A stretch of DNA of 34,991 nt from Alphaproteobacteria bacterium (GTDB lineage Bacteria > Pseudomonadota > Alphaproteobacteria > GCA-2731375), in contig JAYGEB010000363.1 of the NCBI GenBank assembly GCA_046582595.1, positions 1-34,991 of the forward strand, given 5' to 3'. Made by a program: the position numbers and the translations under genes. Shown here in pieces: positions 3,932 through 34,991 of this stretch. Position 1 is the stretch's first letter. Each line of letters begins with the position of its first letter. The notes beneath the pieces were generated by a model that was given only the letters and a program-made list of their open reading frames with translations, was not told the origin of the DNA and searched no databases.

Positions 3932-5235
3932 CAGCCCTGTTCCCCGTCGGGATCGGAATACACCACCTTACCATCGACAATGGTGCGCCAGGGCCGCCCC
4001 TGCACGGGCCGGCCATGATAGGGGGTGTTTTGCGACTTGCTGTGGAAGCGGTCTTCGTCGATGCGCCAGGGCTTATCCGGGTCGAACACCAAAATATCGG
4101 CCGGAGCGCCAGGCGATAATTTACCCCCGCGCAGACCAAGCAATTGCGCCGGCCGCGAAGTCATGGTGGCAAGCAGATCCAGCAGGCTCAGATCGCCGTT
4201 ATGGTACAATTCCAACGCCAGGGGCAGCATGGTTTCGAGGCCGATGATGCCGGTCGCCGCCAACTCGAACGGCAGACGTTTGGATTCCACATCTTGCGGA
4301 TCATGGCAGGAACAGATCACGTCGATGGTGCCATCGGCCAAACCGGCCACCACCGCCTTTCGATCCGCTTCCGCCCGTAGGGGCGGCGCGGTCTTGGCGA
4401 AACTGCGGTATTCCCCCACCGCGACCTCGTTCAAGGCGAAACTGTGCACGGCCGCGGCGGCGGTAACCCGCAAGCCCCGCGCCTTGCCCCGCGCCATGGC
4501 CTCGATCGCCTGTTCCGTCGACAGGCAGGCGGCGTGATAACGGCCCCCGGTCATCTCCACCAGGCGCAAATCCCGCTCCACCATGATGGTTTCGGCCTGG
4601 GTCGGGATGCCCGGCAGGCCCAGGCGCATGGCGACTTCGCCCGCGTTCATCACGCCATTGCCGGCCAGACGCGGTTCCTCCGTATAATGGCAGATCAGCA
4701 GATCGAAGGCGGAGGCGTAGCTGAGGACCCGGCGCATCACCTGGGCGTCGGCCACCGTGCGGTCCGCATCGGTGAAGGCCACCGCGTCGGCCTCGGCCAA
4801 CAATCCCAGTTCCGCCATCTGCTCGCCCATGAGGCCCTTGGTAATGGCGGCCATGGGGTGGATGCGCACCACGGCCTTATCGCGGGCCTGGCGTTTGATG
4901 TATTCCACCAGGGCGACATCGTCGATCACCGGCTCCGTGTTCGGTTGCACGATGATGCAGGTAACGCCGCCCGCGGCGGCCGCCAACGAGGCCGAGGCCA
5001 GGGTTTCCTTATGCTCGGCGCCGGGCTCTCCGACAAAGACGCGCATGTCGATCAGGCCGGGACATAGCACCCGGCCGCCGCAATCCACCACCGCCATGCC
5101 GTCCGGGACGCCGTTGCGGAACAATTCAGGCCCCAAGTCGATGATTTGACCGTCCTGGGTCAGCAGCGCGCCGGGACTGTCAAGGCCGCTGGCCGGGTCG
5201 ATCAGGCGGGCGTTGATGTAGGCGGCCGTGGTCAT
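3931..5235 (-). CDS. pyrC: Dihydroorotase-like protein, probably the catalytically inactive PyrC' type
   Basis: Amidohydrolase fold ([21 protein letters not shown]) overlapping pyrB. HxH is replaced by DMRVF and the catalytic Asp is lost (SCHDP). Confidence 0.88.
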
Positions 5236-31984: not shown

Positions 31985-33671
31985 ATTCCCACCCGGTCTG
32001 CTGCTGATCGGCGGCGCCTTTCTGGCGCCTTTCATCAAGGGGAATCTGCGCTCGATCTTCATGCTTGCCCTGCCGCTGCTGGGCATCTGGCAATTGACGA
32101 TGTTGGAGCCGGGCACGTTCGGGGCCATGTCGGCTTTTGGTTTCGAGCAGACCCACGTGCGCATCGACAAATTGAGCCTTTTGTTCGGCTATATTTTCTA
32201 CATCGCGGCGGCCCTGGGCATTTTGTTCGCCTGGCACCGCGACGACCGCCTGGAACAGGCCACGGCCCTGGTCTATGTGGGCGCGGCCATCGGCGCGGTC
32301 TTCGCCGGCGACCTGATAACCTTGTTCTTCTATTGGGAATTGGCGGCGATCTCGGCGGTATTCCTGATCTGGGCTGGAAGGACCAACCGGTCCGGCGGTG
32401 CCGGGTTCCGAAGTCTGATCATCTATATGTTGTCGGGCATATTGTTGCTGACGGGCGTTGCCATGCGGGCCATCGAAACCGGCTCGGTCGCCTTCAACAA
32501 CATCGGTCTGGACAGTCCCGGCGGCACGCTCATCCTGCTTGCCTTCGGCATTAAATGCGCCTTCCCGCTGCTTCACAACTGGCTGCAAGACGCCTATCCG
32601 GAAGCTTCGGTCACGGGCACGGTGTTCCTCAGCGCCTTTACCACGAAACTGGCCGTGTACGCTCTGGCGCGCGGTTACGCGGGCACCGAAATTCTGATCT
32701 GGATCGGCGCGGCCATGGCCGCATTCCCCATATTCTACGCGGTGATCGAGAACGATTTGCGCCGGGTTCTGGCCTATAGCCTCAACAACCAGTTGGGATT
32801 CATGGTGGCGGGTATCGGCATCGGCACCACGCTTGCCATCAACGGGGCGGTCAGCCACGCCTTCGCCCACATTATTTATAAATCGCTTTTATTCATGTCC
32901 ATGGGGGCGGTGCTTTACCGGACGGGTACCATCAAGGGCTCGGAACTTGGTGGACTTTACAAGAGCATGCCATGGACCACCGGCTTTTGCATCGTCGGCG
33001 CTGCTTCCATTTCCGCCTTTCCGCTGTTCAGCGGCTTCGTGACCAAATCCATGATTCTGACCGCCGCCGCCGAAGAAGGCTATATGATTCCCTTTCTGGT
33101 CCTGCTGTTCGCGTCCGCCGGGGTATTCCATCATTCCGGCATCAAAATCCCATACTTCGCCTTTTTCGCCCATGATTCCGGCAAGCGGCCCAAGGAAGCT
33201 CCCCTTAACATGCTCCTGGCCATGGGTCTCGCGGCGTTCCTCTGCATTGCCATCGGCGTCTATCCGCAGCCGCTGTATGCGCTGCTGCCCTTCGCCGTGG
33301 ATTACACGCCTTATACGACAACGCATGTGGTCACCACGCTTCAGCTTCTGCTTTTTTCCGGCCTCGCCTTCGCGGTCTTGCAAAGGACCGGTCTCTACCC
33401 TCCGGAACTGCGTTCCACGGTTCTCGATTTCGATTTCAGTTACCGCTGGCTCGCGCCCCGGATAGCCGGCTGGCTCATGTCCGCCGTCGAGCGCGCCTGG
33501 ATGACGGTGGCAAACGCTTCACTGCTGCTGCTAAGTGGCCTGATCGCCCTGACCTTCAGATATTTTGGGCCGCATGGCCTGTTCGCACGCACCCAAACGA
33601 TCCGTTTCTCGTTGAGCGTCATTATTATCCTGCTGGCGATTTTTCTCATGATCTTCTTCGCGCGCCGATGA
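31974..33671 (+). CDS. mrpD: Mrp subunit D family (copy 3)
   Basis: FYWE, KCAFPLLHNWLQDAYP, LRRVLAYS, HAFAHIIYK. Confidence 0.9.
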   Translation: MTAEFPPGLLLIGGAFLAPFIKGNLRSIFMLALPLLGIWQLTMLEPGTFGAMSAFGFEQTHVRIDKLSLLFGYIFYIAAALGILFAWHRDDRLEQATALVYVGAAIGAVFAGDLITLFFYWELAAISAVFLIWAGRTNRSGGAGFRSLIIYMLSGILLLTGVAMRAIETGSVAFNNIGLDSPGGTLILLAFGIKCAFPLLHNWLQDAYPEASVTGTVFLSAFTTKLAVYALARGYAGTEILIWIGAAMAAFPIFYAVIENDLRRVLAYSLNNQLGFMVAGIGIGTTLAINGAVSHAFAHIIYKSLLFMSMGAVLYRTGTIKGSELGGLYKSMPWTTGFCIVGAASISAFPLFSGFVTKSMILTAAAEEGYMIPFLVLLFASAGVFHHSGIKIPYFAFFAHDSGKRPKEAPLNMLLAMGLAAFLCIAIGVYPQPLYALLPFAVDYTPYTTTHVVTTLQLLLFSGLAFAVLQRTGLYPPELRSTVLDFDFSYRWLAPRIAGWLMSAVERAWMTVANASLLLLSGLIALTFRYFGPHGLFARTQTIRFSLSVIIILLAIFLMIFFARR

Positions 33672-33961
33672 CCGCTATTTCCGGGGTGACGCCGGCAAGC
33701 GCCTCGGGCGATTGGTCAACCCCATCTTCCCCACCCACGGCATCCTGGCGCGGACCTGGCCCACGGGCGGCACGGCCCTCCGGACCGCCGCGTTATTGGC
33801 CGTGCCGTTGGCGGATTTAGGCCATGTTCGGGATTGAAATGATCGATCAGGGTCGCGACGGCGGCCCGGCGCTTATGCGCCGCCCGCGCGGAGCGGTGCG
33901 CTCTTGCGCACAAGCGTGAGCGAAGAGAGCCAGGCCCGAATAATTCAATCCCAAAAATGCT

Positions 33962-34468
33962 CTAAGCGTTGGAAATACGGCACGACACCTGCAAGCTGAC
34001 TTGGCCATTGCCGGATAGTTTGTCGTAGTTCAAACGCTCTTTCTTGGCTTGCTTGCGAAAGATGGCTTCCAGTTGATCACGGACGCCGGGCTCCAGATCC
34101 TCTGCATCCAAGGTTATCGTCATGGGCAGCTTGCTCACGCGTTTCGCGGGCCGTTTCGCGGGCGTTCGCTTCGGCTTCTTGCCGCCATTGCCAAAGACAT
34201 CGTCCCAGCCCGAACGGTAATCATCGGTCGAGACGGAGGAGAAATAACTGATGGGCCGGCTGGATGTATCGGACTTGCCGCCGCCCCCACCGCCACTGCC
34301 CGCATCGCCACTTGTCTCGGTGCCGGACTCCTTGCTTGACGCCGAGGCTTCGGAGGCTTTCGTTTCCGTCTTTGTCGTTTCCGTCTTTGCCGCTTCGGTC
34401 TTTGTTGCTTCCGTCTTTGTCGATGCGCTTTCGGATTTTTTTGTATCCGTCTTCGGTTTCGTCGCCAT
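33962..34468 (-). CDS. Hypothetical protein with a low-complexity N-terminus
   Basis: Long ORF with T/K/E/S-rich repeats, a Gly linker, YFSSVSTDDYRSGWDDVFG and a globular-looking C-terminus. Confidence 0.7.
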   Translation of the reverse strand: MATKPKTDTKKSESASTKTEATKTEAAKTETTKTETKASEASASSKESGTETSGDAGSGGGGGGKSDTSSRPISYFSSVSTDDYRSGWDDVFGNGGKKPKRTPAKRPAKRVSKLPMTITLDAEDLEPGVRDQLEAIFRKQAKKERLNYDKLSGNGQVSLQVSCRISNA

Positions 34469-34759
34469 AATTGTCTACTTACCAATTCCTGTATTAAGTG
34501 CCTTGGGGCCAACCGACCCCGTTTATCAATATTGCCATGGTTTTCTCAAGCAAAATTTTGCGCCGCCCGTTGACCCAAACCGTCAATCTACATTGGTCCC
34601 GCCGCAAGCCACTATCGCAATCTCTCGCCAGGACCGCCTGAATGAATTGGTTTTGCGGTGACGGCGGCGCGGAATAGCGGCCAGGTAATCAGATATTCGG
34701 AAATGCAGCTATGTTTCCCGGTTCGTTTCAGCAAACAAATGCCTAATACCAAGGTGCGA

Positions 34760-34991
34760 TGATAAAGACTCATATAGACGCATTACGAAGTCTTTCGGGT
34801 AGGAGCGTGTTGCGCCGTGGTACCAGTACCACAAGCGGCGCGCGACACCGCCAAAAGTCTTCGTAATGCGCCGAATTCGGTCGTTTCAGGGGGCCCTCGG
34901 CGGCGTCGTGAAACCTTGAAGGTACTGGCACCGTCGGCGGTTCCACTTCTACCCGAGGGGCCCCTGAAACGATCTATATGGGTCTTTATCA
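34760..34991. repeat. Composite palindrome: two inverted 116-nt structured units around a central CCGAATTCGG
   Basis: Outer 19-bp inverted repeat (18/19), two internal 16-bp hairpin arms and homologous cores; exact symmetry about 34875.5. Confidence 0.9.

Follow-up and report, generated by a model that had tools for sequence, protein, structure and literature searches.

Our analysis identifies a short mobile element at the far end of the window, by which we mean the whole stretch of 34,991 nt that was analysed, here the entire contig C203 of a host genome assembly of 523 contigs (78% complete). The element belongs to a repeat family, called F1 in the following, which is very probably a mobile MITE. 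Our full explanation, which we consider rather likely, is that the window holds a truncated copy of this ~258-bp MITE, moved in trans and read through its fold. The paired structure of F1 is, with good confidence, under selection, and its twin-hairpin core is older than its ends: the core is kept across families of elements and the ends are not.

Limits, layout and mobility of F1

An earlier note, made from the sequence alone, had described positions 34760–34991 as an exactly symmetric palindrome of at least 232 bp. The layout it described is present: 34760–34875 and the reverse complement of 34876–34991 are 116 nt each, both end in CCGAA, meet at the junction CCGAATTCGG, and agree at 18 of 19 positions in their first 19-mer. 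The sequence itself is not exactly symmetric, with 69 of 116 positions (59.5%) identical in an ungapped comparison. Shuffled halves (2000 shuffles) gave a mean of 30.0 identical positions (sd 4.75, maximum 49), and the two halves fold with RNA minimum free energies of -51.0 and -55.5 kcal/mol (z -6.0 and -6.3), values equalled by none of 200 shuffles; since both identity and folding exceed the shuffles, chance does not account for the symmetry of layout, which is real. A repeat finder run on the window recovers the same inverted arms. What the window holds is thus a symmetry of layout and no exact sequence palindrome.

The suspicion that the structure extends further was correct, and the limits first given were too narrow. 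Copies align from 34747, 13 nt outside the original start, and the element overshoots the contig end by ~13 nt, so that the F1 copy in the window comprises 34747–34991 with its right end truncated by the end of the contig. In complete copies the right end goes on with ...TCATCGCACCTTGGTA, followed by TNA. That the copy has no ORF holds except for one 68-aa frame running off the window end. The parts of the copy are as follows (R1 denotes a covariance model of the hairpin unit, built from 88 units):

34744–34746, no strand: left 3-bp target-site duplication, TAA; a T-N-A flank is present in every copy listed
34747–34778, + strand: left terminal inverted repeat, 32 nt, TACCAAGGTGCGATGATAAAGACTCATATAGA; its start is common to all copies
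34779–34870, + strand (folding strand +): hairpin unit A, from fold, covariation and R1 score
34795–34805 and 34843–34852, + strand: internal loop of unit A, TCGGGTAGGAG and CGACACCGCC
34871–34880, no strand: central CCGAATTCGG, from the single-stranded DNA fold of a complete copy; sequence kept in family F1
34881–34972, - strand (folding strand -): hairpin unit B, from R1 score and strand pair counts
34947–34957 and 34898–34908, - strand: TCGGGTAGAAG and CGACGCCGCCG of unit B
34973–34991, - strand: right terminal inverted repeat, 19 of 32 nt present, the contig ending inside it

Two further features of the window lie outside the element. Positions 33811–33962 are a copy of a second, commoner repeat family of ~145 bp with inverted ends of its own (TTAG[AG][GC]CAT...), for which the host genome gives at least 86 BLAST hits; copies of it adjoin truncated F1 ends on C192, C404 and C247. 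At 34346–34456, six tandem 15-nt units lie inside an ORF (33962–34468, - strand) and encode a Lys/Thr/Glu-rich N-terminal repeat of a 168-aa protein of unknown family.

The F1 element reads TACCAAGGTGCGATGATAAAGAC(T/C)CATATAGA ... plus its inverse, is mostly 258 bp long (range 248–285), and consists of 32-nt terminal inverted repeats around an interior of two convergent ~92-nt hairpins. BLAST of the stretch against the host genome returned 37 matches, many of them at contig ends, and 28 F1 end motifs were found there at three mismatches or fewer. By BLAST, F1 is present in the host genome, in 17 of 20 genomes of the same genus and in one other genus of the family, and in none of 16 genomes of other families; its copies number in the dozens per genome, and its carriers are uncultured marine alphaproteobacterial assemblies labelled Rhodospirillales or Rhodospirillaceae. 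No PLSDB plasmid matched a full F1 copy by distant blastn. In three DNA metagenome runs the summed contig depth of the element exceeds that of the unique flank by a factor of ~3 to 60, depending on the bin, and the contigs show many different sequences attached to the element at 34741–34747; the Logan contigs of public runs break inside the repeat, so none spans its centre. Deletion derivatives that retain both ends are common (44–55, 90 and ~156–193 bp).

The position of the window copy at the very end of a contig in a fragmented assembly raises the question of an assembly fold-back artefact, and two other contig ends fuse truncated copies to adapter-like sequence. The earlier note had thought such an artefact improbable, and we regard its likelihood as negligible. 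Complete copies with two different flanks lie inside host contigs C194, C388 and C409, both ends are seen at 50 of 60 sister-genome loci, and complete copies with the same architecture occur in many independent metagenome and genome records. The two fused ends are truncated F1 copies at C54:22327–22424 and C137:1–61, which run straight into AGATCGGAAGAGC..., presumably Illumina adapter sequence; they look like chimeric contig ends of the assembly.

Flanks were compared in 53 copies, i.e. the 50 of 60 sister-genome loci with placeable ends and three host copies. Identical 3-bp flanks were found in 41 of them (TTA 24, TAA 15, TCA 1, TGA 1), and flanks identical at 4 bp in none. The target reads about G.C|TWA|G, with insertion at TNA and mostly at C|TWA|G. 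The 12 exceptions to a direct duplication include both complete host copies (TTA...TAA). When one copy of the duplication is removed, the flanks of the host copy on C388 are colinear and essentially gap-free with the same intergenic region of a sister species (G001:C423), which reads CAA where the host has TTA; the flanks are ~80% identical. No precise empty site was found in other species pairs, in which flanks are 73–77% identical and alignments stop before the element. F1 thus shows each MITE feature tested: it is short and gene-less, has terminal repeats, duplicates its target, occurs in many copies and has an empty site. The earlier proposal of a non-autonomous mobile element with terminal inverted repeats and two structured modules is borne out by the copy number, the TNA duplications and the empty site, which it had named as things to look for, and by the covariation described below.

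Fold, covariation and strand bias

The structure was analysed in an alignment of 44 full F1 copies. RNAalifold predicts the end stem and hairpin A on the + strand, where it does not predict hairpin B. The structure that was tested combines the end stem and A with hairpin B as read on the opposite strand. In this structure 92.4% of 3956 cells are paired; none of 500 shuffles reached this value (82.8±0.3%), and a control with slid partners gave 37–42%. Changes on both sides are seen in 47 pairs. The end helix, which joins the left to the right repeat, is 97.6% paired over the 44 copies with 14 pairs changed on both sides; positions 6–13, 19–20 and 28–29 of the ends vary among copies and match within each copy. 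Folded as single-stranded DNA, a complete copy reaches -93.6 kcal/mol (z -13.7) in a four-way shape whose arms are the end stem, the hairpins A and B and, between these two, a CCG-AATT-CGG mini-hairpin. The central CCGAATTCGG is predicted to form this mini-hairpin, with a 3-bp stem and AATT as its loop.

Unit A comprises three stems (outer, inner and apical) and an internal loop. The inner hairpin parts fold on opposite strands, each on the strand that reads 5'-TACCAAGG inward. Over the 44 copies, predicted pairs counted on the + strand are distributed as follows:

End stem: G·U 28, A·C 22
Hairpin A: G·U 161, A·C 16
Hairpin B: G·U 32, A·C 184

The same bias was followed in 90 half-units (45 copies), read from the outer end inward after copies more than 4 off a length of 259 had been dropped. 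The raw count of 302 G·U against 46 A·C pairs depends in part on the strand that is folded: the antisense alignment, used as a control, also yields a fold of 35 pairs, so the contrast comes partly from the choice of strand. The antisense fold contains 231 "A·C" cells, most of them from two nearly invariant pairs and probably spurious. At the 23 pairs predicted on both strands the counts are near balance (G·U 40, A·C 34), which limits the G·U bias to the inner and apical stems. There, six inner pairs (54-108, 62-98, 64-96, 65-95, 71-90 and 76-85) show 241 G·U and no A·C, and all six covary through several Watson-Crick types.

Folding energies and model scores point to the same strand. The sense strand is the more stable in 84 of 90 units (mean -59.1 versus -52.1 kcal/mol). 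R1 gives 88–108 bits for full-length F1 units and 29–37 bits for the antisense of the same places, a gap that leans toward sense because R1 was trained on sense units. In the window, unit A scores 102.9 bits on + and 33.8 on -, unit B 100.3 bits on - and 31.5 on +. By energy, unit B of the window folds slightly better on + (-59.1 kcal/mol) than on - (-55.5), opposite to the family trend.

Could such complementarity arise without selection? Template switching in quasi-palindromes copies changes between arms, and this process or gene conversion might keep the arms of F1 complementary as a mutational by-product. The near-symmetry of the end stem and of the outer stems between strands is what templated copying gives, and the frequent deletion derivatives with both ends show that the structure provokes replication errors. 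Templated copying, however, produces Watson-Crick pairs and leaves the excess of G·U at the six inner pairs unexplained, as it does the conservation of loop sequences across orders. Moreover, the stem sequences of units A and B remain different from each other in 44 of 44 aligned copies while the ends co-vary, so homogenisation of whole arms is not happening. We therefore consider a mere by-product quite unlikely and selection on the structure the better account.

A different question is whether the structure acts as RNA. Since an inward transcript from either flank would meet a "sense" hairpin first, the twin hairpins could form an orientation-independent RNA module (a processing site, insulator or stabiliser) selected by the host, with the transposon ends as a mere vehicle. 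The G·U-rich, strand-specific inner stems on convergent strands agree with this, as do two contigs from one metatranscriptome run that join pieces of the element to the flanks of two other copies, and bcr1 of Bacillus offers a precedent in the passages of PMC3184786 that deal with it. DNA hairpins, however, also tolerate G·T pairs, and the RNA-library contigs may be DNA carry-over (word share 0.04). Neither promoter-like nor terminator-like sites were found inside the element. A search of 33000–34991 against Rfam 15 in E-value mode matched no family and returned sub-threshold micro-RNA and snoRNA noise, the best scores being 25.1 bits for mir-995 (threshold 72) and 23.3 bits for mir-8934 (threshold 100). 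The genes that flank 26 copies are divergent in 8 cases, tandem in 14 and convergent in 4, with no preference for 3' ends; this count is crude, resting on stop-to-stop frames and a GC3 filter, and 11 of 37 places had no call on at least one side. An RNA module strikes us as rather unlikely.

The twin-hairpin core in other families

In the host genome R1 also detects elements of the same plan whose ends are unrelated to those of F1. All follow one plan, in which two ends of 31–33 nt enclose a pair of convergent hairpins with a short centre between them. Two such families in the host are:

Family F2: ends TA|GAGC...CATTTGA; C494:2157–2414 and C133:2403–2666; TA-type flanks
Family F3: ends TA|GTACCCC...ATGA; C353:607–872 and C383:235–512; TA-type flanks

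As in F1, the two ends of F2 co-vary within copies. Within the order, 26 of 33 genomes have R1 hits; in a class sample with one genome per family the figure is 10 of 151, host included. A motif scan followed by an R1 check found twin units in records of Sphingomonas, Sphingosinicella, Novosphingobium, Roseibium and Pelagibius, with further end types (GGGTC.., GCCCG.. and an F1-like TACCAA..) and TA or TNA flanks. The best-conserved sequence across families is the loop GGG(T/C)AGG(A/C)GCG ... GCGACGC; in F1 the conserved loop of the inner hairpin reads GGGTAGGAGCG...GCGACGCC, with a GGGTAGGAG loop. One arrangement departs from the common plan: at G018:C96:4544–4645 and 4646–4747, both on the + strand, two R1 units stand head to tail and not convergent, which among R1 hits is seen in G018 alone.

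Mobilising enzyme and known systems

The search for a transposase gene with the same ends, proposed in the earlier note, came back empty. No ORF lies between F1-type ends in the host genome, at 60 loci of a metagenome end-pattern scan or at 86 loci of a genome-collection end scan, and an end-pair scan of seven genomes found pairs of 54–55, 90, ~156–193 and 258–285 bp and no ORF between them. An autonomous IS with TACCAAGG ends that could serve F1 was not found in the genomes and loci scanned. Five metagenome candidates without a second end had been considered as autonomous elements and proved on reading to be truncations. Hits of the genome collection outside the clade look like chance, and one of them (L350) has no second end. 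Solo end motifs in the host were likewise considered as IS ends; ordinary genes follow them, so they are truncated copies.

IS5-family elements do occur in these genomes. Those of the genus have ends unrelated to F1, and hits to PF01609 and PF13586 in relatives do not track the copy number of the element. An IS427-like IS with a TTA duplication is present in sister genomes G011 and G013, again with ends that differ from F1. At host C316:215–1551 lies a 1337-bp IS5-family element that matches DDE_Tnp_1 weakly; the ends of this element, CTA|GCCCGGATACGTCACGAA, give the nearest resemblance found, 11 of 15 bases, to those of a further family with the core (F5, in G044). Genome G183, a single contig of 4.2 Mb, carries a related family in five copies whose ends are identical, and has no PF01609 match. 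One locus that resembled a hairpin-bearing IS (L248, G003:C293, 198–1258) turned out to be a decayed IS427-like element with an F2 copy inserted at its 3' end. The IS427-like element has orfA and orfB with an A8 run at their overlap, and the F2 insert at about 1000–1258 extends the orfB frame.

Short-read genome bins often lack ISs that are present in several copies, and the missing autonomous IS is therefore weak evidence against one. In the passages of PMC2516522 that treat them, IS427/IS1031-group elements insert at three nucleotides, and IS1237 duplicated TAA. The TNA duplication of F1 matches the transposases of this group so described, and on that account an IS5-like (IS427/IS1031-like) DDE enzyme acting in trans is our best guess; its gene was not found in the genomes and loci scanned, and we hold this assignment, the most likely one, to be about evenly balanced.

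The mechanism we propose would run as follows. A transposase acting in trans, with cuts staggered by 3 bp, would move F1 by cut-and-paste. A protein would recognise the folded single strand through the conserved loop of the inner hairpin; the folded strand would be DNA exposed in replication or transposition, RNA being less likely, and the ends would need no more than complementarity and a fixed distance of 31–33 nt from the hairpin. That a protein reads the folded strand through this loop is a tentative suggestion. We think it doubtful, though conceivable, that the superfamily as a whole is moved by a structure-reading enzyme that need not be a classical IS transposase. Such an enzyme would recognise the four-way junction through the inner loop and, after measuring a distance of 31–33 nt, cut at the base of the end stem. 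Structure reading would explain why any pairing ends will do, why the core is kept across alphaproteobacterial orders and why genomes with copies of fresh appearance lack a matching transposase.

Among known systems, IS5-derived bacterial MITEs (IS427/IS1031) resemble F1 in being small, free of ORFs, present in many copies and bounded by terminal inverted repeats, with a 3-bp TNA (or TA) duplication at a C-TWA-G-like target. F1 differs in that no IS with matching ends was found, that the core and not the ends is conserved across the related families, and that the two ends of each copy co-vary.

REP/REPIN-RAYT systems are similar in other respects: convergent pairs of structured hairpins, a conserved foot containing GTAG, strand-specific folding and, as is the case for REPINs, paired changes that keep the fold. 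The earlier note had called the element REPIN-like. Taken as membership, this would make the inner hairpin a REP and the convergent pair a replicative unit moved as folded single-stranded DNA by a RAYT (HUH Y1) enzyme. REPs carry a 5' GTAG, and in the present core a GTAG within the conserved loop immediately precedes the strand-specific inner stem on its 5' side. Y1 genes of RAYT type are found in 16 of 21 genomes of the genus, the host included, and Y1_Tnp is present in 5 of 10 core-bearing and 21 of 141 other genomes of the class sample. Against this stand the 32-nt terminal repeats and 3-bp target duplications of F1 copies. REPINs and REP-RAYT systems are not known to have a target duplication or any terminal inverted repeats other than the REPs, nor is Y1 transposition known to make either. 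A clear R1 hit was present at none of 20 Y1 loci (10 in the genus, one with a weak hit at E 0.16; 10 in the class, with none). G159 (99% completeness) lacks any Y1 match and has 22 core hits, a Y1 match is also missing from G006, G007 and G019, which have the element, and Y1 is present in the element-poor G004, G005 and G009. Membership in the REPIN class is thus very unlikely, and a MITE moved in trans remains our reading. The host Y1_Tnp gene (C80:14074–14397, - strand) lies in a 229-aa open frame on a contig without an R1 hit; a copy of the ~145-bp repeat lies 1.3 kb from it.

Integron attC sites and the folded attP of CTX phage are folded single strands with few fixed bases, of which one strand is active; they are sites of tyrosine recombinases and are not dispersed with TNA duplications. 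By analogy F1 is like them in that sequence is free to vary while the fold and a few fixed bases are kept and one strand is active; it differs in that F1-type elements are dispersed with TNA duplications, and no tyrosine recombinase was linked to them. The closest precedent is bcr1 of the Bacillus cereus group, which the relevant passages of PMC3184786 describe as a mobile, transcribed repeat of ~155 bp with direct repeats and compensatory changes at the RNA level, hence like F1 a folded, covarying MITE-like repeat with a cruciform-like fold. The likeness is one of description, and bcr1 has a 5-bp duplication and belongs to another phylum, whereas F1 shows its bias on two opposite strands and shares its core with families that have different ends.

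Three properties are not standard: a core that is kept across orders with different ends, the covariation of ends within copies, and inner hairpins on opposite strands. A full-text literature search (abstracts and passages) gave no description of such an element, and a term look-up in PMC11602168 met none of the taxon names. As far as these texts go, and with no match in Rfam or PLSDB, we call the family undescribed.

MITEs are usually defined by ends copied from a parent insertion sequence. The elements described here reverse this pattern, in that the ends differ between families and the strand-specific twin-hairpin core with its fixed loop is kept, both in uncultured deep-sea bacteria that are Rhodospirillales-like and in cultured Sphingomonas; a parent element was not found even in a genome assembled as a single contig (G183). 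At the least, they form a widespread and undescribed family of repeats at which metagenome assemblies break, with many copies at contig ends. If the fold is read by the mobilising protein, we would have here a dispersed element that duplicates its target and is recognised through its structure, and it would provide a testable system in cultured hosts for how orphan MITEs move.
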